The position numbers and the translations under genes were made by a program. This document shows, one piece after another, positions 5,083 through 37,021 of a stretch of DNA of 45,614 nucleotides. Position 1 is the first letter of the stretch. Every line of letters starts with the position of its first letter. The notes beneath the pieces are model-generated. The model did not search any database. It was not told where the DNA came from and saw only the letters and a list, made by a program, of their open reading frames with translations. Origin of the DNA: an uncultured Gammaproteobacteria bacterium (GTDB lineage: Bacteria > Patescibacteriota > Patescibacteriia > Patescibacteriales > UBA12465); the NCBI GenBank assembly GCA_964408775.1, contig CAYPAP010000003.1, positions 1 to 45,614 on the forward strand, in the 5' to 3' direction.

Positions 5083-5868
5083 TTATAGATTCAGCTTCTT
5101 AATATCTCTTATAATATTTTTGTGATTTTTTTTATTACTAGCTACAATATCGGGACTTTCTAAGTTCCATTTTTTATTGGAGAAATCGGTAACAATTCCT
5201 CCGGCTTCTTCAACTAATAAAACTCCAGCAGCAACATCCCATGAATTAGCTCCGGGGATAACTAGGGATTCAATTCGCCCGCAGGAAACATAGGCCAATT
5301 CGATAGCAGCGCTTCCTAATTGTCGGCAATCCAGACCATTCATTTTTTGATAAGAAAAATATTTTACAGCCTTTTTAATGTCAGATTTTTTTCTACTATG
5401 ACAAAAAGTGTTTATATTTTTGTCCTTTTCGGTTGTCGAAACTTTTATTTTTTTACCATTTAAATAAGCTCCTTTCCCTTTTTCGGCTACATACAGCTCA
5501 TTTAGCATTGGGGCTAGTATTATTCCTAAAACAACCTCTTTCTTGTAAAGTAGCGCCACTGAAATTGACCAAAGGGGATTATGAATAGAGAAGTTAGTGG
5601 TTCCATCTATCGGATCTATAATCCATAAAAAATCAGATTTATTTTTATTGTAACCACTTTCTTCAGCCAAGATTTGATGGTCAGGAAAATGCTTTTTTAT
5701 TTCCTCGGTGATCATTTTTTCTGATAATAAATCATATTTTGTGACTATTTCATGCCTAGCTTTTAGTTTTATCTTGCTCCTATCAAATTTTTCATACTCC
5801 TTTTTAAGCATTTCTCCAACTAAGGATATATTTTTAATAGCTATTATTTTTATTTTTTTTAATTCCAT
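5083..5868 (-). CDS. suhB: Inositol monophosphatase family protein (SuhB-like)
   Basis: AEES, WIIDPIDGTTNF, WDVAAG motifs. Confidence 0.88.
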   Translation of the reverse strand: MELKKIKIIAIKNISLVGEMLKKEYEKFDRSKIKLKARHEIVTKYDLLSEKMITEEIKKHFPDHQILAEESGYNKNKSDFLWIIDPIDGTTNFSIHNPLWSISVALLYKKEVVLGIILAPMLNELYVAEKGKGAYLNGKKIKVSTTEKDKNINTFCHSRKKSDIKKAVKYFSYQKMNGLDCRQLGSAAIELAYVSCGRIESLVIPGANSWDVAAGVLLVEEAGGIVTDFSNKKWNLESPDIVASNKKNHKNIIRDIKKLNL

Positions 5869-14075: not shown

Positions 14076-15494
14076 ATGTCAAAAAAAATAAATTCTAAAG
14101 AGGTGGAGGTAAAGGGAAGCGAGGAATTAGATAAGATTGTATCTCTATGTAAGCGCCGAGGCTTTGTTTTTCCTTCCTCGGAAATCTACAAGGGATTTTC
14201 AGCTGTTTATGATTTTGGTCCTTATGGGATGGAGCTGGCCAATAATATTAAAAATGCTTGGCTTAAGGCCATGGTGCAATGGCGCGATGATGTTGTGGGT
14301 CTAGACAGCGCTATTTTTATGAGCCCCAAGGTTTGGGAGGCCTCTGGCCATGTCAAGGGTTTCTCTGATCCTTTAACTGAATGTAAAAAATGTCATAGTC
14401 GTTTGCGCTTGGATTCTTTATTGGAGGAACAGGGAATTTTTGCTGACGAAAAAATGACTGAAGATGAAATCAATAAAATATTTTCTGAAAATAAGGATAA
14501 AATTAAATGTCCTAATTGTGGAGCTCAGGATTTTAGCGAGGGCAAGAATTTTAATTTATTGGTTAAGTCTAATTTGGGAAATTTTACTGGTGACATGGAC
14601 AAGGAGTCAGTTTATTTACGAGGAGAAACTTGTCAGGGAATTTATGTTAATTATAAAAATGTTTTGGATTCTACTCGAGTCAAAATTCCTTTTGGTATTG
14701 CTCAAATTGGCAAGGCTTTTCGTAATGAAATTACCGCTCGTCAATTTATATTTCGCACTCGTGAATTTGAGCAAATGGAAATGCAATATTTTGTTAAACC
14801 GGAAGATGCTAAAAAATATTATCAGGAGTGGAAGGATTTACGTTGGAATTTTTATTTGGATTTGGGAATTAAGGAAGAAAATTTGCGCTGGCATCAGCAT
14901 GAGAATTTGGTTTTTTATGCCAAGGAGGCTTATGATATTGAATATAATTTCCCCTTTGGTTTTAAGGAGTTAGAAGGTCTGCATAATAGAGGTGATTATG
15001 ATTTAACTCAGCATAGTAAGCATTCTGGTCAAGATTTGAGTTATTTGGATCCTAGTGATAACAAGAGATTTATTCCCTATATCATAGAAACTTCAGCTGG
15101 TGTGGGGCGAACTTTCTTGGCTGTTTTATCTGATGCTTATTGTGAGGAAAAATTAGAAGGGGATGATAGCCGAGTGGTTTTGAAATTGAGTCCTAAGTTG
15201 GCTCCGATTAAAGTAGCGGTTTTTCCCTTATTAAAAAATAAGCCCGAGCTAGTGGCCAAGGCTAAGGAGGTTTTTGATATTCTGAAGAAAGAATGGCGTT
15301 GTGAGTTTGATGATAATGGTAATATTGGTAAGCGCTATCGTCGTCAGGATGAAATTGGAACCCCATATTGTGTGACGGTTGATTTTGATAGTTTGGAAAA
15401 GGGTGATGTCACCCTGCGTGATCGTGATACCATGAAACAGGAGAGAGTAAGTATCGGCGATTTAGTGAGTTTTTTGAAAGATAAAATTTGTTAA
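14076..15494 (+). CDS. glyQS: Glycine--tRNA ligase, homodimeric alpha2 type
   Basis: LCKRRGF, LRGETCQG, GKAFRNEIT, FRTREFEQME, IGKRYRRQDEIGTP. Confidence 0.93.
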   Translation: MSKKINSKEVEVKGSEELDKIVSLCKRRGFVFPSSEIYKGFSAVYDFGPYGMELANNIKNAWLKAMVQWRDDVVGLDSAIFMSPKVWEASGHVKGFSDPLTECKKCHSRLRLDSLLEEQGIFADEKMTEDEINKIFSENKDKIKCPNCGAQDFSEGKNFNLLVKSNLGNFTGDMDKESVYLRGETCQGIYVNYKNVLDSTRVKIPFGIAQIGKAFRNEITARQFIFRTREFEQMEMQYFVKPEDAKKYYQEWKDLRWNFYLDLGIKEENLRWHQHENLVFYAKEAYDIEYNFPFGFKELEGLHNRGDYDLTQHSKHSGQDLSYLDPSDNKRFIPYIIETSAGVGRTFLAVLSDAYCEEKLEGDDSRVVLKLSPKLAPIKVAVFPLLKNKPELVAKAKEVFDILKKEWRCEFDDNGNIGKRYRRQDEIGTPYCVTVDFDSLEKGDVTLRDRDTMKQERVSIGDLVSFLKDKIC

Positions 15495-15505
15495 TGATAA
15501 AAAAT

Positions 15506-15535
15506 AAAAAAGGCCCGGGCTTGCGCTCGGGCTCT
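15506..15535 (-). terminator. Intrinsic terminator for the 15560..16165 gene (possibly bidirectional)
   Basis: On the minus strand GCCCGAGC-GCAA-GCCCGGGC followed by CTTTTTT. Confidence 0.7.
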
Positions 15536-15559
15536 TGTGTTGTCTCCAATTGGTCGGGT

Positions 15560-16165
15560 TTATCCGATTTTGTTGACGACAACGAATTCGTTGGTACCAG
15601 GGATGGATGCGGAGAACACGGTGTTCTCCCTTTTTTTTCCCCCGATTTTAACTTCATGGGTGGTTTTGGTTGGGGTAAGGTATATGTAGTAATCTACAAT
15701 AACCTTAGTTTCTTTTGTGCGGGAATTCTTTGCTTCACGCACTATAATCTTCCCACTAACCTCCTCGCCAAATCTAATCTCGTGTTTGGCGTTTGGTTGT
15801 CCGGCGATCCTGTAGGTGCGGGTCACCAATTTTCCTGCGATCATGACACCATAGCGCCAGTAGGAGGGGATGATGATGATCTCCCCGCTACGCAGGAGCG
15901 TTAAGCCCGCTTCAACGAATTTCAGGAATTTTCCGTTCACCTGTGGTGTCCGGAATTTTACATTTTTGAAGGTTCCCAAGATCCTGTGATTCCAATCTGA
16001 AACCATAAGTGTTTCTTCGGATCCATCATCCCTTGTTTTTACTCCGACCACCACCCCGTGGTTGTCGTGAATAGCGACCCCACAACGGAGTCTTTCTACT
16101 AGTCCAGAGATTCTTTGGTCATTAATCCCTGTCGCTGTTTCTCTTGTTTTTGTTCTTGTCTCCAT
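15560..16165 (-). CDS. Orphan hypothetical protein (201 aa)
   Basis: ORF with its own promoter upstream and terminator downstream; GC above the flanks; no family recognised. Confidence 0.75.
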   Translation of the reverse strand: METRTKTRETATGINDQRISGLVERLRCGVAIHDNHGVVVGVKTRDDGSEETLMVSDWNHRILGTFKNVKFRTPQVNGKFLKFVEAGLTLLRSGEIIIIPSYWRYGVMIAGKLVTRTYRIAGQPNAKHEIRFGEEVSGKIIVREAKNSRTKETKVIVDYYIYLTPTKTTHEVKIGGKKRENTVFSASIPGTNEFVVVNKIG

Positions 16166-16194
16166 CTTTTTGGTTTTTGGTTTTGGGTTTTTAA

Positions 16195-16340
16195 TTAAAA
16201 TCTCCTTAGAAAATAAAAAGAGCGAAAAGACGCTTTTCTATTCTCTAAGGAGATTTTAAATATTTTTTTAAAGAACAGTTCGATTTATTGACTGCTAAAT
16301 CATAACCAAGAATTATAGCATACTTATTAAAAAAAGTCAA
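16195..16340 (-). promoter_or_regulatory. Sigma70 promoter + boxA-like motif + long leader hairpin
   Basis: TTGACT-17-TATAAT with TGn; TGTTCTTTAAAAA (16265-16277); perfect 16-bp inverted repeat 16195-16210/16244-16259. Confidence 0.72.
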
Positions 16341-16458
16341 GTCCTTGCGAAATTGCTGTGGTTAGTGGGGTGTTTTAGATTTATTTTGTTTCGTTAATTT
16401 TTGCAATAATATTTTAAAAGCCTTTAAAACAGCTTGTTTTTATTGGTTTTTATCAGTG

Positions 16459-16642
16459 TTGACAAATTTTTGTCTATATGCTACAATATTCAGTTAATTA
16501 AAAATAGAACTTTGACAAAAAGGTTTTTGAATTTGCTTATTCTTTGAGACTATAGATATTATTTATTTTTTTAATAACTACTATTTTATTGTAGTTTTAA
16601 AAAATAAGCAAATTCATTAATTATTTACTTAAAAAAGGAGGT
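16459..16642 (+). promoter_or_regulatory. Sigma70 promoter + boxA-like motif + long leader hairpin + strong SD
   Basis: TTGACA-17-TACAAT with TGn; GAACTTTGACAA (16507-16518); 14-bp perfect stem 16528-16541/16603-16616 extended by G-U pairs; AAGGAGGT. Confidence 0.75.
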
Positions 16643-16646
16643 TATT

Positions 16647-17270
16647 ATGATCATTTATTTGGCTGATGGGACTTATATCAACACAGATCCCGCCGCAGCT
16701 CCAACACCACCGGCACCAGCACCAACGCCGCCAGCACCAGCACCAACGCCGCCAGCACCAGCACCAACGCCGCCAGCACCAGCACCAACGCCGCCAGCAC
16801 CAGCTCCGGCACCGGCACCGAACATCAACACCCAGACCATCAATTTCCCCAACGGGATTTGGATGTGGATCCTCGGAATTGTTGCTATTCTGGCTATTGT
16901 GGCCATGGTGGCATTTTCCGGAGGTTTCGGTGGAGGCAAGAAAGCCGAGATGGAAGCCCTTAAGGCCCAAATCGAAGCGGCTGACGCTGAAGCCGACTTT
17001 GCCAAAGCCGAAGCCGCAAGGGCCCAGGCTGAGGCTGACAAGGTCAGCCGTAACTCCCGGAATAATTCCGGACGGCTAACCAAAGTGGAAGAAAGGATGG
17101 ATGTCCAGGATGAGCGCAATGCTCTTCAGGACCAGTTCAACCAGATACTGGTTGATAACACCACTCCTACTACCACTCCTGCCCCCGCCCCTGCTTGTCA
17201 GGACGGCGGTATTGAGAAAACTATAGCCACGATAGAGGCTCTTCAGGGCCTCTTGGACAAGATGGATTAA
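16647..17270 (+). CDS. Orphan Pro/Ala/Thr-repeat single-pass membrane protein with coiled coil
   Basis: Strong SD; (APTPPAP)x5, one hydrophobic helix, Ala/Glu-rich helical segment. Confidence 0.8.
   Translation: MIIYLADGTYINTDPAAAPTPPAPAPTPPAPAPTPPAPAPTPPAPAPTPPAPAPAPAPNINTQTINFPNGIWMWILGIVAILAIVAMVAFSGGFGGGKKAEMEALKAQIEAADAEADFAKAEAARAQAEADKVSRNSRNNSGRLTKVEERMDVQDERNALQDQFNQILVDNTTPTTTPAPAPACQDGGIEKTIATIEALQGLLDKMD
16698..16802 (+). repeat. 21-bp coding tandem repeat, 5 units
   Basis: GCACCAACGCCGCCAGCACCA identical four times (16719-16802) plus one degenerate unit. Confidence 0.95.
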
Positions 17271-17296
17271 CCATCTAAGTCAAATCATGGTCCACC

Positions 17297-17325
17297 AGCA
17301 GAGAATTGAAACCCTCTGCTTTTTT
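17297..17325 (+). terminator. Intrinsic terminator
   Basis: AGCAGAG...CTCTGCT followed by a T run. Confidence 0.75.
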
Positions 17326-17459
17326 ATTTTCTCAAACTAAATTCATCCCTAAATAATTTTTATTTCATATAAAATATCTATTAAAATATTTTAAATAATA
17401 ATTTACAAAAACATATATTTATCGCAAAAACCCCTGTTTTTAGGTATTTTATATATCTA

Positions 17460-17657
17460 TTGACAAAAAAATATTTATATGCTACAATTACAAGTTAAAA
17501 TTAGGTTCATTAACAAAATTGGTTGGTGTTTTAATTGTCTAGCAAGTCAATGATTTTAGGTAATTTTATTTAATTATTTTTTGTTGATTTACTAGACAAT
17601 TAAACTTTAAACTAACCAATAAATACGAGACCTCACGTGAGTAAAGTAAGCGTGAGG
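17460..17657 (+). promoter_or_regulatory. Sigma70 promoter + boxA-like motif + long leader hairpin + RBS-proximal hairpin
   Basis: TTGACA-17-TACAAT with TGn; GTTCATTAACAA (17505-17516); stem 17518-17620 with perfect 13-bp core 17530-17542/17592-17604; CCTCACG/CGTGAGG hairpin 17631-17657. Confidence 0.75.
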
Positions 17658-17665
17658 AAAAAACC

Positions 17666-18805
17666 ATGAGAAATTTTTTTGTAATTTTATTCGTTGTAGT
17701 GCCGTTGTGTATAATGGCACAGGAAATCACACCCTCCAGTTCTTTCGGAGACTTGCCGGTCGAGATGAAGGCCTTCATGGGCAACATCGAGATTGAGAAT
17801 AAGACCATCATTCAGGATTTGGTGCTCAAGGCGAGCCCCCTGTATCAGGACAATTATTTGAGTGGCAACTTCGGGACCATCCGTAACCGGGTTGAGTTCT
17901 CGAACATCGTCAACAAATCTACGGCCCAGTTCACATTTGTGAGTAGGGTAGTAAAGGTTGAGGGTGTTTACCAACTCGCTACGACCCCTCCGACCACCTG
18001 CGCCAGCGCCGATTCAGCCTTGATCAACACTTCTCTCATGAAGGATTTTAAGGCGAAAAAGTTGCTCGTACAGGCAGAGTTCACCAATCCCTTTACTGGG
18101 GAAAGGGTGAGAAAACTGTTGGAGATTAATTTTGATCAGAACTCAGAGCCGAATGGCGACGACATTCTGGCCAGCGCCTCCATTACCAGTGCCGACCTCG
18201 GCCTTAACGTACTTACGTTAAAGGTTGAGTCTCCAGTAGGGTTCACGTTTTCACTGCAGAACAAGCAGTACGACGTGAGCATGGTTATCAAGGCCGATGA
18301 CAAGGGAAGTCTTGAGTTTTTGGCTCCAGCCATGATGCCAGACGGAGTTTACGAGTTTGTCTGTCGCCTGGGGCTCCCCAATGGGATCTCCGGCGAGGAA
18401 AAAGTCACCGCCTTCGTCTCCAAGGGAGAAGTTATTCTGGAAGAATCCTCCTTTAATCCTCTGGCTTTTGCCAAGGGTAAAGCGACTTTCTCTGGAAAGA
18501 GGACTCTCGTTAAGATGCGCAACACGCGCAACGAAGACGTGACTGTTTTTATACCCGATGAGTACATAGCTCGGGGAAGGAGAGTGGACGTGGATATCCG
18601 GACTGACGCTTTTTTTGAAGGGGTGACCTGGAAAAGCTATAATATAGCGCCAGGTCAGACCCTCAAGTTGAGACTGAAGGAGTCATCGATTCCAACAATC
18701 GTCTACGGCAATAAGTCGAAGACGACCAGAATCCTTTACCTCCCAGTTGGTCAGAGGAATGTCTATCGGGCATACCTCAGTTGGGACCGCTGGGCATCCA
18801 ACTAG
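17666..18805 (+). CDS. Orphan exported protein (379 aa)
   Basis: N-terminal signal peptide (MRNFFVILFVVVPLCIMA-Q); GC clearly above the flanks; no family recognised. Confidence 0.8.
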   Translation: MRNFFVILFVVVPLCIMAQEITPSSSFGDLPVEMKAFMGNIEIENKTIIQDLVLKASPLYQDNYLSGNFGTIRNRVEFSNIVNKSTAQFTFVSRVVKVEGVYQLATTPPTTCASADSALINTSLMKDFKAKKLLVQAEFTNPFTGERVRKLLEINFDQNSEPNGDDILASASITSADLGLNVLTLKVESPVGFTFSLQNKQYDVSMVIKADDKGSLEFLAPAMMPDGVYEFVCRLGLPNGISGEEKVTAFVSKGEVILEESSFNPLAFAKGKATFSGKRTLVKMRNTRNEDVTVFIPDEYIARGRRVDVDIRTDAFFEGVTWKSYNIAPGQTLKLRLKESSIPTIVYGNKSKTTRILYLPVGQRNVYRAYLSWDRWASN

Positions 18806-18831
18806 AGTTATCTACCCCCCAAGGGGCACTC

Positions 18832-18859
18832 AAAGCGCTTGCTAGTCGAGCGCTTTTTT
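18832..18859 (+). terminator. Intrinsic terminator
   Basis: AAAGCGCTTG-CTAGT-CGAGCGCTTT followed by Ts. Confidence 0.78.
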
Positions 18860-18870
18860 ATTTTTAGCCA

Positions 18871-18899
18871 TTGACCACTATATCATTTTTTGCTATAAT
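18871..18899 (+). promoter_or_regulatory. Sigma70 promoter for the MBL-ndk-gyrA run
   Basis: TTGACC-17-TATAAT with TGn. Confidence 0.7.
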
Positions 18900-19088
18900 T
18901 ATTGTATAAACATTATCAATTCATCCAATCAATATTATTTTGTCTGGGATGTAAAAGGGCCTGTTTATAGGCATTTCAAGGAGATAAAAAGGCTAATAAA
19001 AGTTGGCTTTTTGTCTTTAAGTTGATTTTTGAATTTTATTTTTTTACTTTTAAGTTTTTAAAATAATTTATTTTTAAATTTTTATTAT

Positions 19089-19733
19089 ATGAATATTACT
19101 TACTTTGGTCATTCTTGTTTTAAGATTGAAGAAAAGATAAATGACCAGAATATTTCCATTATTACCGATCCATTCACTAAAGAGGTGGGGCTGAAGGTTC
19201 CTAATGTTGAGGCCGATATTGTCTCTATTAGTCACGATCATTTTGATCATAATAATGCCTCTTCATTGCGCGGAAATCCCTTTGTGGTTGATACAGCTGG
19301 AGAGTTCGATGTTAAGGGGGTCATTATTGAGGGAATCCGTTCTTATCATGACGACAATCAAGGGAAGGATAGAGGTGAAAATATTATTTTTCGTTTTGAT
19401 GTTGAAGGGCTTAGTCTGGCTCACTTAGGAGACCTAGGAGATGTTTTGGATAATAAGCAATTAGAAAAAATTGGTGGGGTTGATATTTTATTTATCCCCG
19501 TTGGTGGTAAATACACTCTTGATGCCAAGAAAGCCCTAGAAGTTATTTCCCAAGTTGAGCCCAGAATTGTTATTCCTATGCATTATAAAACTAAAGATTC
19601 AAAAATAGATATAGATGGTGTTGACAAATTTGTTAAAGAGCTAGGTATCGAGCCAAGTTATGAAGATAAATTAAAAATAAATAAAAAAGATTTACCGACT
19701 GAAGATATGCATCTGGTAATTTTTAATATTTAA
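19089..19733 (+). CDS. Metallo-beta-lactamase-fold hydrolase
   Basis: GHSCF, DPF, SHDHFDH, HLGD, IPMHY motifs. Confidence 0.9.
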   Translation: MNITYFGHSCFKIEEKINDQNISIITDPFTKEVGLKVPNVEADIVSISHDHFDHNNASSLRGNPFVVDTAGEFDVKGVIIEGIRSYHDDNQGKDRGENIIFRFDVEGLSLAHLGDLGDVLDNKQLEKIGGVDILFIPVGGKYTLDAKKALEVISQVEPRIVIPMHYKTKDSKIDIDGVDKFVKELGIEPSYEDKLKINKKDLPTEDMHLVIFNI

Positions 19734-30615: not shown

Positions 30616-31659
30616 ATGCTGAGAAATAAAAACAACAAACCCGCGTTTACTCTAATTGAATTATTGGTGGTGATTGCTATAATCGGAATATTAGCTACTC
30701 TGGCTGTTGTGTCTCTGCAAAATGCCAGAAAAAATGCTCGAGATGCTAAAAGGATAGCGGATATTAGGCAAGTTCAAACTGCCTTAGAGCTATATTATAA
30801 TGACGTTGGTGAATATCCAGCTGAAGCAACTAGTTCTATTGCCTATGGTAGTAATATTTATATGGCAGTTTACCCTACCGCACCTACTCCGGCTGATGGA
30901 GATTGTGCTGATGAAGATAATGCCTATATTTATACTCAACAAAACTTGGGCACCTCATACACTATCGATTTCTGCCTAGGCACTTATACTGGAGGGCTGA
31001 CAGCAGGTTCTAAGCAGGCTACTCCAGGTGGAATAGTTACTCCTTGGGATTGTGGTGAAACTCTTGTCGACTCTAGGGACAGTAATGAATATGCTACAGT
31101 AGAAATAGGGACTCAGTGCTGGATGGCCGAAAACCTAGCTTATCTTCCGAGTGTGACTGGTCCTAGTGCGCAATGGAACTCGACCGACCCTAGATATGCC
31201 GTGTATAATTATACTAGTGCATCAAACTCAGTAATAGATGCTAAGGCTACCACTAACTACTCTACTTACGGAGTATTATATAATTGGTTTGCCGTTGATC
31301 AAGCGAGTATTTGCCCCACCGGTTGGAGCGTCCCCACTGATACTCAATTAACAACTCTAACTACCTATTTAGGAGGGCTAAGTGTGGCTGGAGGGAAAAT
31401 GAAGCAAACAGGAACAACTCATTGGGCCTCTCCTAATACTGGGGCTACTAATGAATCAGGCTTCACGGCCTTGCCGGCCGGTAACCGCTTAAGCGATGGT
31501 TCATTCGGTAACCTTGGTTATGTTGCCATCTTTTGGTCATCGTCAGAGAGTAGTCCCGACAATTCTTGGTATCGGTACTTGTATTATTATCTTGAAGGGG
31601 TGGACCACCTCAGCAATCTTCAGACTCTCGGTTTATCGGTGCGTTGTCTTAAAAATTAA
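30616..31659 (+). CDS. Type IV pilin N-terminus fused to FISUMP (Fib_succ_major) domain, paralog 1
   Basis: PA-FTLIELLVVIAIIGIL prepilin motif; DSRD..Y.TV.IG.QCWMAENL, YGVLYNW, CPTGW.VPT, FWSSS, G.SVRCLKN. Confidence 0.9.
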   Translation: MLRNKNNKPAFTLIELLVVIAIIGILATLAVVSLQNARKNARDAKRIADIRQVQTALELYYNDVGEYPAEATSSIAYGSNIYMAVYPTAPTPADGDCADEDNAYIYTQQNLGTSYTIDFCLGTYTGGLTAGSKQATPGGIVTPWDCGETLVDSRDSNEYATVEIGTQCWMAENLAYLPSVTGPSAQWNSTDPRYAVYNYTSASNSVIDAKATTNYSTYGVLYNWFAVDQASICPTGWSVPTDTQLTTLTTYLGGLSVAGGKMKQTGTTHWASPNTGATNESGFTALPAGNRLSDGSFGNLGYVAIFWSSSESSPDNSWYRYLYYYLEGVDHLSNLQTLGLSVRCLKN

Positions 31660-34933: not shown

Positions 34934-35995
34934 ATGTTCAAAATTAAAACCAAAAAACCAGGATTTACTCTAATCGAGCTATTAGTAGTAATCGCCATAA
35001 TAGGTATATTAGCTACTCTAGCCGTAGTATCCCTACAAAACGCTAGAAAGAATGCGCGTGACGCTAAAAGAATAGCCGATGTTAGACAAATGCAAACAGC
35101 ATTAGAACTATACTATAATGACACCGGAGTATATCCGTTAACTGGAGAAATAGATAGTACTATAGCTACGGGAGGATCAACCTATATGGCTACTGTCCCA
35201 ACAGCGCCCACTCCAGCAGATGGAGACTGTGAGGAAAGTGATAATACTTACACTTATACCTCTGCTAACGGATCGACCTATACCATAGGCTTTTGTATCG
35301 GAAGCAATATTTCTAGTTTGTTAGCCGGGACTAAACAAGCTACTCCAGCTGGGATTGGAGACCCTCCTCCCGCTCCCTGGGCCTGTGGTGATACTTTAAT
35401 TGATTCTCGAGATAGCAATGAATACGCTACGGTGGAAATTGGAACTCAATGCTGGATGGCCGAAAATCTAGCCTATCTCCCAGTGGTTCATAGCAATTCT
35501 CAATTTAGCACTCAAGGAGGCAGTTCTCTTCCCGGCTATGGTGTCTATAATTATGATGGCAGTGATGCCCCCACGGCCAAAGCTCTACCTGATTATTCCA
35601 CCTATGGAGTTCTATATAATTGGTTTGCCGTTGATCAAGTAAGTATTTGCCCCACCGGTTGGAGTGTTCCTACTGATGCTCAATTAACAGCTCTAACTAC
35701 CTATTTAGGGGGAGAAAGTGTGGCTGGAGGAAAGATGAAGGAGGCTGGAACAGTTCATTGGGCTTCACCTAATACCGGAGCTGACAATACCTCTAATTTT
35801 ACGGGCTTACCAGCTGGCAACCGCAGTACCGATGGTTCCTTCTCCACTCTTGGCTATCTCGCCAGCTTTTGGTCATCGTCCGAGGATACTCCTGGCAATT
35901 CTTGGTACCGGCGCTTCCGCTGGGATAGTGCCGGAGTTAACCGCTTCGGCAGTAGCCAGGCTAGCGGTTATTCGGTTCGTTGCCTTAAGAACTAA
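34934..35995 (+). CDS. Type IV pilin N-terminus fused to FISUMP domain, paralog 2
   Basis: PG-FTLIELLVVIAIIGIL; same FISUMP motifs as paralog 1. Confidence 0.9.
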   Translation: MFKIKTKKPGFTLIELLVVIAIIGILATLAVVSLQNARKNARDAKRIADVRQMQTALELYYNDTGVYPLTGEIDSTIATGGSTYMATVPTAPTPADGDCEESDNTYTYTSANGSTYTIGFCIGSNISSLLAGTKQATPAGIGDPPPAPWACGDTLIDSRDSNEYATVEIGTQCWMAENLAYLPVVHSNSQFSTQGGSSLPGYGVYNYDGSDAPTAKALPDYSTYGVLYNWFAVDQVSICPTGWSVPTDAQLTALTTYLGGESVAGGKMKEAGTVHWASPNTGADNTSNFTGLPAGNRSTDGSFSTLGYLASFWSSSEDTPGNSWYRRFRWDSAGVNRFGSSQASGYSVRCLKN

Positions 35996-36160: not shown

Positions 36161-37021
36161 CTATTTTCCGCAAACCATCCCTTTACAGGATGAGGTTGTC
36201 GGAGCTCCCAGACAAATTTGAACATTCTCCACGTTAGAGAATGGTCTTTCCGGGAAAATCAGAAGGTCAATTACCTCACCGATCAACACAGATTCAGAGA
36301 TTTTCATCTCTACATATTCTGTAATCAATCTCTGGATTTCTGGTTGATTTTTCTGATTTATTTTTTCAAAGACCTCCCTTATATACCTCGGGAGAAATAG
36401 TGTCTCCGATTCCGGATCTTCTCCGGCGATCTTTTTAAAAACCTCTATGGGGTTGAAGAATTTCTTGGCATTGGTGTGTATGTGTATCCACACTGGGATC
36501 GTAATTACAGAGTTTCTGTATTTTCCGGAAACTTTAGTATTAACACGCAGAACACTCACCTCAATATTTTCTTCACTTCCTTCGGGATTTTCCTTATTAT
36601 ACCATGCTGACTGAGCATCCTCAGTTTTTAACTGGTAAATAATTCCTTTAGCCCATACAGGCTCATCAATAATTATTTTCTCTCCCTTTTGTTTAACTGC
36701 TACCTGGCCATGTTTAGTTTGGTGTATTATTTGGAGGAAGGCACTGTCGTAGCGACTTGTCTTTGGGGGGATTGTGATAAATCTTTCGCGGACACTGAGT
36801 ACCAATATTAAATTCAATAATGGTATTCCACCACCAAAGAGCATCGAAAGCGTGAGCTTTTTTTCGATCCAATCTTTAGGCATATCACCAGGACCCGCCA
36901 ATACTGAAAATAAAATTAATCCCACGAGAAGCAGGGCGCAGAGGATAAGAAAGGTTTTTTCCCCTGGTTTTTCAGCAAAAAAGAGAAAATGACTTCTAAT
37001 CATTTTTTTAATTGTTTTCAT
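36161..37021 (-). CDS. Orphan membrane protein (two N-terminal TM helices)
   Basis: 286-aa ORF with its own promoter and terminator; no family recognised. Confidence 0.78.
   Translation of the reverse strand: MKTIKKMIRSHFLFFAEKPGEKTFLILCALLLVGLILFSVLAGPGDMPKDWIEKKLTLSMLFGGGIPLLNLILVLSVRERFITIPPKTSRYDSAFLQIIHQTKHGQVAVKQKGEKIIIDEPVWAKGIIYQLKTEDAQSAWYNKENPEGSEENIEVSVLRVNTKVSGKYRNSVITIPVWIHIHTNAKKFFNPIEVFKKIAGEDPESETLFLPRYIREVFEKINQKNQPEIQRLITEYVEMKISESVLIGEVIDLLIFPERPFSNVENVQICLGAPTTSSCKGMVCGK

Follow-up and report, generated by a model that had tools for sequence, protein, structure and literature searches.

Three adjacent genes in a Patescibacteria genome share a leader of promoter, boxA-like 12-mer and long RNA hairpin that resembles the 23S rRNA leader of their genus

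The DNA analysed here (the window) is a stretch of 45,614 nucleotides, C3:1–45614, from a Patescibacteria genome assembled in six contigs (833 kb, 33.5% GC, 95.8% complete), which we refer to as G000, with C1–C4 denoting its contigs and labels from G002 to G020 its congeners. Our subject is a group of three adjacent genes between glyS (14076–15494) and the gene of an MBL-fold hydrolase (19089–19733; Lactamase_B_3 by Pfam), each of which is preceded by a leader containing a sequence that resembles boxA, the antitermination element of ribosomal RNA (rRNA) leaders. In 3/3 units the order of elements is the same: promoter, boxA-like 12-mer, long leader hairpin, open reading frame (ORF) and terminator. 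The original prediction, made from the sequence of this window, had described three adjacent stand-alone units of this kind, and this is borne out by scans for promoters, folds and terminators. The promoter scan of positions 15000–19500 returned four sites at 11/12 with the TGn extension, the fourth of which (18871–18899, plus strand) serves the adjacent core gene and not a unit. The features of the three units are given below; z-scores of the minimum free energy (MFE) refer to the whole leader and to 60 dinucleotide-preserving shuffles, and SD denotes the Shine-Dalgarno sequence.

15512–15533, both strands: bidirectional terminator common to glyS (plus) and ORF1 (minus), with a minus-strand T-run after the stem, 27 nt past the ORF1 stop
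15560–16165, minus strand: ORF1, 201 aa, all-beta, no signal peptide, no Pfam family
16195–16259, minus strand: unit 1 leader hairpin, 29 contiguous pairs; leader MFE −44.6, z −9.1
16265–16276, minus strand: unit 1 boxA-like element, GTTCTTTAAAAA, which fits GYTCTTTAANA
16312–16340, minus strand: unit 1 promoter, TTGACT-17-TATAAT with TGn, 11/12, conserved upstream of 14/14 ORF1 orthologs examined
16459–16487, plus strand: unit 2 promoter, TTGACA-17-TACAAT with TGn, 11/12; the same promoter and boxA are found in G014 (C37:58927–58986)
16507–16518, plus strand: unit 2 boxA-like element, GAACTTTGACAA
16528–16616, plus strand: unit 2 leader hairpin, 14+16 pairs with small bulges; leader z −4.5
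16647–17270, plus strand: ORF2, 207 aa, Pro/Ala repeats, one membrane helix, coiled-coil tail, SD AGGAGG, no Pfam family
17298–17329, plus strand: unit 2 terminator, 6-bp GC stem, 10-nt loop and T-run, read from the sequence
17460–17488, plus strand: unit 3 promoter, TTGACA-17-TACAAT with TGn, 11/12, near-identical in orthologs at only 45% protein identity
17505–17516, plus strand: unit 3 boxA-like element, GTTCATTAACAA
17518–17620, plus strand: unit 3 leader hairpin, base GGTTGGTG...CTAACC, 13+10+8 pairs with small bulges; leader z −6.2
17631–17657, plus strand: small hairpin sequestering the ORF3 SD, from the leader fold
17666–18805, plus strand: ORF3, 379 aa, signal peptide, tandem beta-sandwich surface protein, no Pfam family
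18832–18856, plus strand: unit 3 terminator, 10-pair stem followed by a T-run

The terminator of unit 2 is missing from the automatic terminator scan because the loop limit of that scan is 8. All three 12-mers are placed on the coding strand in sense orientation between promoter and gene, and they start 35, 19 and 16 nt past the −10 hexamer in units 1, 2 and 3, which agrees with the predicted distance of 16–35 nt. The longest uninterrupted helices comprise 29, 16 and 13 pairs, respectively: a perfect stem core of 13–16 bp, as had been claimed for all three, is thus found in units 2 and 3, while the stem of unit 1 is longer.

The arrangement recurs far beyond these three genes. Of the 84 intergenic promoters of G000 with a score of 11/12 or more, 7 have the motif with at most one mismatch at +3 to +60, where 0.8 would be expected (p=2e-5), and all seven of these promoters are among the 39 that exhibit TGn; for promoters scoring at least 10/12, the motif is found behind 11/261 against 2.5 expected. 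Because the motif was derived from G000, this within-genome test is partly circular, and other genomes were therefore scanned with one fixed pattern, consisting of an extended −10 promoter, 3–50 nt and then GWWCNTTDAMAA. Across the genus this pattern gave 144 matches in 21/21 genomes, with 8 in G000 and up to 14 strict sites in a single genome; the whole pattern read backwards gave 1, and a control with the 12-mer reversed gave 1 match in 1/21 genomes (0 for its own whole-pattern-backwards version). Of 200 other genomes sampled evenly from the phylum, 58 had a match, with 113 matches in total, and the backwards control gave 0. This corresponds to a density of approximately 6.8 matches per genome in the genus versus 0.57 in the phylum sample, a difference of about 12-fold. 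In G000, 46 promoters fit the promoter part of the pattern genome-wide, of which 8 then carry the exact 12-mer. Given that the motif is A/T-rich and that, with up to one mismatch, it occurs 83 times in G000, 56 of these inside coding sequence, the arrangement could be suspected of arising by chance in the AT-rich intergenic DNA behind strong promoters; the controls of 1 versus 144 and 0 versus 113 refute this, as does the conservation of the motif in orthologous leaders, and we attach practically no weight to it. The arrangement is real, common in the genus and patchy elsewhere in the phylum, and the view of the leader as a reusable module agrees with its recurrence before unrelated genes.

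The leaders are conserved together with their genes. Homologs of ORF1 are present in 13/20 congeners and those of ORF3 in 9/20, with 0/20 genomes outside the genus encoding either of them; among 5.8 billion proteins ORF3 has 19 homologs, and the low-complexity ORF2 has homologs in 2/20 congeners, G014 and G006, at the syntenic place. G014 has all three genes, arranged as they are here and next to the same MBL-fold gene, and in G019, G002 and G020 ORF1 and ORF3 likewise lie side by side, so that synteny of the cluster extends to at least five congeners (with G006 as the fifth). The ORFs are therefore not orphans in the strict sense that had been supposed. All ORF1 loci (14/14) show a boxA-like 12-mer behind a promoter, 11 exact to GWWCNTTDAMAA and 3 with one mismatch; the same holds for 9/10 ORF3 loci, with 6 exact and 3 near matches. 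The remaining sequence of the orthologous leaders is unalignable. The distance from the 12-mer to the −10 hexamer varies between 5 and 45 nt, and this variation suits an RNA element better than a DNA site held in register with the promoter.

Several lines of evidence place the leader hairpins at the level of RNA. With z-scores of −9.1, −4.5 and −6.2 in units 1–3, the leaders are more structured than that of the neighbouring core gene (−1.6), and throughout G000 boxA promoters are followed by leaders with more structure than are 38 other pattern-defined promoters (−33.9 versus −25.8 kcal/mol, p=0.008). An alignment of seven ortholog leaders of ORF1 reveals compensatory double changes in 8/23 pairs of the hairpin, and 13 G-U cells versus 2 C-A cells. 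The sense fold is more stable than the antisense fold in 19/23 orthologous leaders (Wilcoxon p=3e-4, with orthologs that are not independent of each other) and for the unit 2 leader amounts to −33.6 versus −22.4 over 150 nt. In case of unit 3, orthologs retain the TTAATTGT...ACAATTAA base, whilst the upper stem diverges yet still pairs; this covariation was read from the alignment, and RNAalifold returned no consensus for the ORF3 leaders because MAFFT misaligned hairpins of unequal length. Each of the three hairpins is single-copy in G000, and this, together with the excess of G-U pairs and the sense-strand bias, favours RNA structures of the transcript over DNA repeats, in agreement with the RNA-level structure proposed originally.

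The same data bear on the possibility that the units are mobile cassettes, with the inverted repeats acting as DNA recombination sites comparable to integron attC or representing remnants of miniature inverted-repeat transposable elements. The stand-alone nature of each gene and its atypical GC content at third codon positions (GC3) would suit such cassettes. The hairpins, on the other hand, form no repeat family, G-U lies far above C-A with folding biased to the sense strand, and each hairpin is located between promoter and ORF, in the 5' untranslated region (UTR), instead of at cassette boundaries; moreover, synteny of the cluster is kept in five or more congeners, with the same adjoining core gene in G014, and there is no integrase among the ORFs between glyS and the MBL-fold gene. 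Mobile cassettes are hence very improbable. Nor do the stems exhibit the properties of intrinsic terminators or attenuators: they are AT-rich, they received no coding-strand call in the terminator scan, and the U-tract after the stem comprises only 4 U for ORF1 and is missing for ORF2 and ORF3. About two helical turns of double-stranded RNA are present in all three stems (29; 14+16; 13+10+8 pairs). Rfam gave 0 matches at gathering score in the window, and with E<=1 in 15500–19100 a single sub-threshold match, located on a terminator (24.6 bits versus a gathering score of 39).

The closest counterpart of these leaders is found in front of the rRNA genes of the same genus. The 23S gene of G000 (C4:705–2891, minus strand) has its own promoter, and in the aligned 23S leaders of seven genomes of the genus a 12-mer is found approximately 90 nt before the mature 23S 5' end. 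In G000 it reads GGTCTTTAAAAA, 11/12 to the pattern GWWCNTTDAMAA; in six relatives it is GATCTTTAAAAA (three genomes), GAACTTTAAAAA, GATCATTAATAA and GAACCTTAATAA (one each), exact to the pattern in 4/6 and one base off in 2/6. The comparison of the 12-mer with the organism's own rRNA boxA, which the original prediction had called for, therefore turns out positive. Positions G1, C4, T6, T7, A9, A11 and A12 are invariant, and positions 2, 3 and 5 are free, in both the 23S and the mRNA leaders. In the six 23S leaders folded, a hairpin of 12–13 bp with compensatory changes follows 9–10 nt after the 12-mer, so that the rRNA leader itself displays the design of boxA and then hairpin. The 16S leader was read in relatives, the 16S gene of G000 being absent from the assembly: in five of them the gene's own promoter precedes GTTCTTT and subsequent T/A-rich bases, after which comes the 5' arm of a 16S-enclosing stem, the partner arm of which lies just past the 16S. 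The rRNA genes of G009, G012, G017, G020 and G014 are arranged in the order 23S-5S-[own promoter]-16S, with the 16S promoter separate and downstream of the 5S.

Genes for the factors that act on rRNA boxA are present in G000. It encodes NusB (Pfam 2.7e-38), NusA (NusA_N 5.6e-18) and NusG (1.6e-31, the single NusG-family gene in a NusG Pfam search of the genome), a SuhB-like inositol monophosphatase is located in the window itself (5095–5862, Inositol_P 5e-67) and S10 was recognised by eye in the ribosomal-protein cluster (C1:21491–21844). The RNase III gene (C4:5443–6138; Ribonuclease_3 8e-28 and, as its double-stranded RNA-binding domain, dsrm 8e-15) adjoins nusB; nusB and rnc, two of the three genes to be looked for according to the original prediction (the third being rho), are thus both in place. 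The RNA-binding domain of Rho (Rho_RNA_bind) was not found in the 95.8%-complete assembly, which makes protection from Rho termination unlikely.

The genes behind these leaders differ from the remainder of the genome in composition and in family content. ORF1, ORF2 and ORF3 exhibit GC contents of 0.46, 0.56 and 0.49 and GC3 values of 0.51, 0.51 and 0.62, against a genome mean GC3 of 0.30 (sd 0.07), and thus are indeed the GC-richer ORFs that had been described. For boxA-module ORFs in general (n=7) GC3 is 0.50, versus 0.34 behind motif-less promoters (n=30; p=4e-5), and a Pfam family is assigned to 0/8 genes of the boxA group versus 12/29 behind motif-less promoters (Fisher p=0.03, with one small ORF left unscanned), which agrees with the anticipated enrichment before family-less genes. 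This contrast is conservative, given that several family-less, GC3-rich genes counted as non-boxA carry versions of the motif with one mismatch. High expression with an accompanying codon bias was considered as the origin of the GC richness and rejected: ribosomal proteins, EF-Tu and EF-G of G000 show GC3 values of 0.19–0.32, so that high GC3 is not an expression signature (by Pfam, neither C1:188411 nor C2:119705 is EF-Tu). Simple foreignness is not the explanation either, since for most species the orthologs behind the same AT-rich leader show a GC3 of 0.16–0.37, high GC3 being confined to G000, G014 and, in part, G019. The description of the ORFs as foreign genes therefore does not stand in the sense of recent insertions: they form a genus-restricted syntenic cluster with a retained leader and mostly AT-rich orthologs. 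The cargo consists of lineage-specific, fast-evolving and mostly secreted or surface proteins, and not of recent foreign DNA. The predicted structure of ORF1 is all-beta (predicted local distance difference test, pLDDT, 85.7) and a Foldseek comparison of this model with the PDB gave no match at E<=0.001, the best VIA match being a weak, OB-like one (Z 5.1, residues 61–166). The model of ORF3 (pLDDT 69.8) yields only generic Foldseek matches, to tandem beta-sandwich, pilin and adhesin-like structures, with low template modelling (TM) values of 0.1–0.2.

Many of the module genes, including ORF1, C1:303037 and C1:297656, are preceded by a spacer that is A/C-rich, G-poor and devoid of an SD. A role of this spacer as a rut (Rho-binding) site was set aside, as no Rho_RNA_bind domain was found. 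The spacer would, however, fit a leader that is mainly post-transcriptional, in which a stabilising or processing hairpin is combined with an A/C-rich, SD-independent enhancer or standby site and the 12-mer forms part of a landing site for the ribosome or S1. Such a device could also accommodate the SD-sequestering hairpins of ORF3 and of the C2:147041 gene, and in E. coli the suhB BoxA acts chiefly on translation (PMC5725501). It fails to account for the same 12-mer in rRNA leaders, which are untranslated, for the normal SD of ORF2 and several orthologs behind the same leader, and for a distance from 12-mer to ATG that ranges from 9 to approximately 150 nt; we thus consider it quite unlikely as the main function. 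The hairpin at C2:~147000–147040 is homologous to that of ORF3 and precedes an unrelated gene encoding a 173-aa lipoprotein, and the two SD-sequestering hairpins differ by a compensatory change from A-U to G-C.

Taking the likeness to the 23S leader as the starting point, we consider it on balance probable that the leader is an rRNA-type Nus loading site on mRNAs, followed by an RNase III-type stem, which serves a genus-wide set of lineage-specific genes. In such a mechanism, the gene set, roughly 7 per genome by the strict pattern, would be transcribed from consensus extended −10 promoters, with a leader design copied from the rRNA leaders of the organism: a single-stranded boxA (G-W-W-C-N-T-T-D-A-M-A-A), a long hairpin and, often, the A/C-rich spacer before the start codon. 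The nascent boxA RNA would bind NusB-S10, which together with NusA, NusG and the SuhB-like protein would convert RNA polymerase into its rRNA-type, pause- and terminator-resistant form, whilst RNase III may cleave the adjacent stem and thereby generate the 5' end of the mature mRNA. Binding of the Nus factors, any effect on elongation or translation and cleavage by RNase III are what we infer from the likeness to rRNA leaders and from the factor genes. Faster and pause-resistant transcription, read-through of AT-rich hairpins, co-transcriptional folding and a suhB-like control of translation are candidates for the benefit to the genes concerned.

A number of observations weigh against assigning the leaders to the Nus system in this manner. 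Only the ORF1 element fits the E. coli-derived consensus GYTCTTTAANA, with the ORF2 (GAACTTTGACA) and ORF3 (GTTCATTAACA) elements not doing so, and the 16S-leader version of the relatives fits the 12-mer pattern at only 10–11/12. A long stem follows boxA in only 7/14 ORF1 leaders, and since some orthologous leaders are without a hairpin, the stem is dispensable. The search for a Rho RNA-binding domain having been negative, the leader cannot serve the classical anti-Rho role, and, as the suhB BoxA of E. coli lowers expression instead of raising it, the effect could be of either sign. A search for sequencing runs containing the locus returned six sludge metagenomes of DNA type and no RNA run. 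Genome-wide gene calls stem from a simple in-house ORF caller, which is a caveat for all counts that depend on them. Finally, the position equivalent to U6 of E. coli BoxA is T, C, A or G in mRNA leaders and 23S leaders alike. In E. coli, the critical nucleotides of BoxA are G2, C5 and U6 (Stagno 2011), and transversions of U6 abolish NusB-NusE binding, as reported in PMC3177189. As this very position also varies among the genus's 23S leaders, lineage-specific recognition is the simpler view.

The relaxed U6-equivalent position is also what would be expected were the 12-mer the site of a lineage-specific RNA- or DNA-binding regulator, which would control a regulon of surface proteins and act on rRNA leaders too, with the Nus factors uninvolved. 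The bias of the cargo towards secreted, lineage-specific proteins resembles a regulon, and the number of copies per genome in the genus is approximately 12 times that of the phylum sample. Arguing for a BoxA instead, the invariant G and C are spaced like G2 and C5 (correctly in 11/14 ORF1 leaders and 8/10 ORF3 leaders), the motif is non-palindromic and always on the sense strand, its distance to the −10 hexamer varies over 5–45 nt, and it is present in both 23S and 16S leaders, which is what defines a boxA; in addition, no candidate regulator was identified. We thus judge a separate regulator to be fairly unlikely and retain rRNA-type Nus loading as the preferred reading.

Further genes in G000 were noted in connection with the leaders and their cargo. 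A 408-aa secreted protein with a Por_Secre_tail (C-terminal sorting domain of the type IX secretion system, 2.5e-14) is encoded at C1:217643–218869 (minus strand) behind a 12/12 promoter and ATTCTTTAACAA. An in-frame TAG immediately following the signal peptide interrupts the module-led gene at C1:103346–104132 (minus strand), the intact tandem paralog of which lies at C1:102686–103306. At C1:181257–182291 (minus strand), a gene resembling PRPP (phosphoribosyl pyrophosphate) synthetase (Pribosyltran) is preceded by a promoter and GATCTTTAAAAA, identical to the 23S-leader boxA of three relatives. Purine-pathway genes at C2:118279–120886 and C2:40011–41465, with GC3 values of 0.40–0.48, exhibit boxA-like 12-mers and A/C-rich spacers upstream; the set includes a SAICAR_synt+AIRC fusion and a Lyase_1/ASL_C gene, and the gene beside the fusion is PurM-like by eye only, having no Pfam match. 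In the window, a family-less gene of 286 aa (36161–37021, minus strand) is preceded by a TGn promoter at approximately 37102, a 12-mer that narrowly misses the pattern (GTCCTTTAAAAT) and an A/C-rich spacer devoid of an SD, and two genes (30616–31659 and 34934–35995, plus strand) belong to a type IV pilin-like family of more than 15 paralogs with a common C-terminal domain, N_methyl being confirmed only for one paralog, on C4. In another paralog (C1:31519) GC is high although GC3, at 0.31, is unremarkable, which suggests amino-acid composition as the source. At the contig end, immediately 3' of the portion of the 23S gene covered by the match, lies an ORF for a LAGLIDADG_1 endonuclease (C4:96–548, minus strand, 7.7e-26); the 23S match spans model positions 1–2925 in only 2187 nt, and the ORF is probably an intron-encoded homing endonuclease, or the 23S gene is interrupted.

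Compared with known systems, the leaders are most similar to the antitermination signals of rRNA operons (boxB-boxA-boxC, the transcription antitermination complex rrnTAC of NusA/B/E/G, SuhB and S4, and an RNase III stem), with which they have in common a strong promoter, a boxA with invariant G..C.TT.A and a long stem. This likeness extends to the genus's own 23S leader, where the same element and following hairpin are found, and to the 16S leader, where the element stands beside the 16S-enclosing stem; of the rrnTAC factors, genes for NusA, NusB, NusG and a SuhB-like protein were found and S10 by eye. In contrast to rRNA operons, the cargo is a single protein-coding gene and the stem is local, enclosing nothing. 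In the E. coli rrn operons the boxB hairpin precedes boxA, whereas here the hairpin comes after boxA and Rho was not found in G000. The order of boxA and then hairpin on nascent RNA is also that of the nut sites of phage lambda, although the stems described here comprise 13–29 bp of variable sequence, compared to a boxB of 15 nt with a defined loop. The NusB-NusE heterodimer exhibits a surface for double-stranded RNA that is contiguous with its BoxA site (PMC3177189).

For gamma-proteobacteria it is established that BoxA elements can precede protein-coding genes and work via Nus factors (Baniulyte et al. 2017, PMC5725501). In this study there are 0–7 sites per genome, few targets are expected per species, these are mostly Nus and translation genes, and the element lies at most 50 nt from the start codon; prsA is among the boxA-linked genes and the effect of the suhB BoxA is described as translational repression plus Rho termination. 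The leaders described here resemble these suhB-type mRNAs in bearing a BoxA in the 5' UTR of protein genes that is conserved among relatives, with a PRPP-synthetase-like gene in one case and prsA in the other, and differ from them in up to 14 strict sites per genome, in their lineage-specific secreted cargo, in the consensus promoter and long hairpin, and in that Rho was not found. RfaH with ops and LoaP likewise rely on a cis signal in the leader that singles out accessory genes, or those of surface structures, to be transcribed processively, although these systems combine a NusG paralog with ops, a DNA element, as opposed to an rRNA-type RNA boxA. A literature search on boxA leaders in Patescibacteria, or the candidate phyla radiation (CPR), found no description, with the limit that the supplementary BoxA list of PMC5725501 may name further cases outside gamma-proteobacteria. 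What is new compared to known BoxA mRNAs is the phylum, the number and lineage-specific secreted nature of the targets, the fixed coupling of promoter and long hairpin that mirrors the 23S leader, and the lack of a detectable Rho.

A further-reaching reading, which we regard as possible but rather doubtful, is that this lineage, in which Rho was not found, would express an entire class of fast-evolving surface and secreted proteins in the manner of rRNA, with Nus loading by a consensus promoter and rRNA-type boxA and a collapsed RNase III stem constituting a dedicated route for accessory genes that is uncoupled from translation. The leader and terminator may in that case also serve as homology arms for the swapping of alleles, which would explain the lineage-specific jump in the GC3 of the cargo.

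BoxA and the Nus factors are textbook components of the rRNA and phage lambda machinery, whilst their use on mRNAs outside gamma-proteobacteria is barely explored. Here, a simple and searchable signature marks genes in all 21 genomes searched in the genus and in more than a quarter of the other phylum genomes sampled (58/200), and could help to delimit 5' UTRs and transcription units when CPR genomes are annotated. Our findings pose the question of what role the Nus complex plays where Rho is not found, and they provide a handle on the expression of lineage-specific surface proteins, the likely host interface, in uncultured organisms with reduced genomes.

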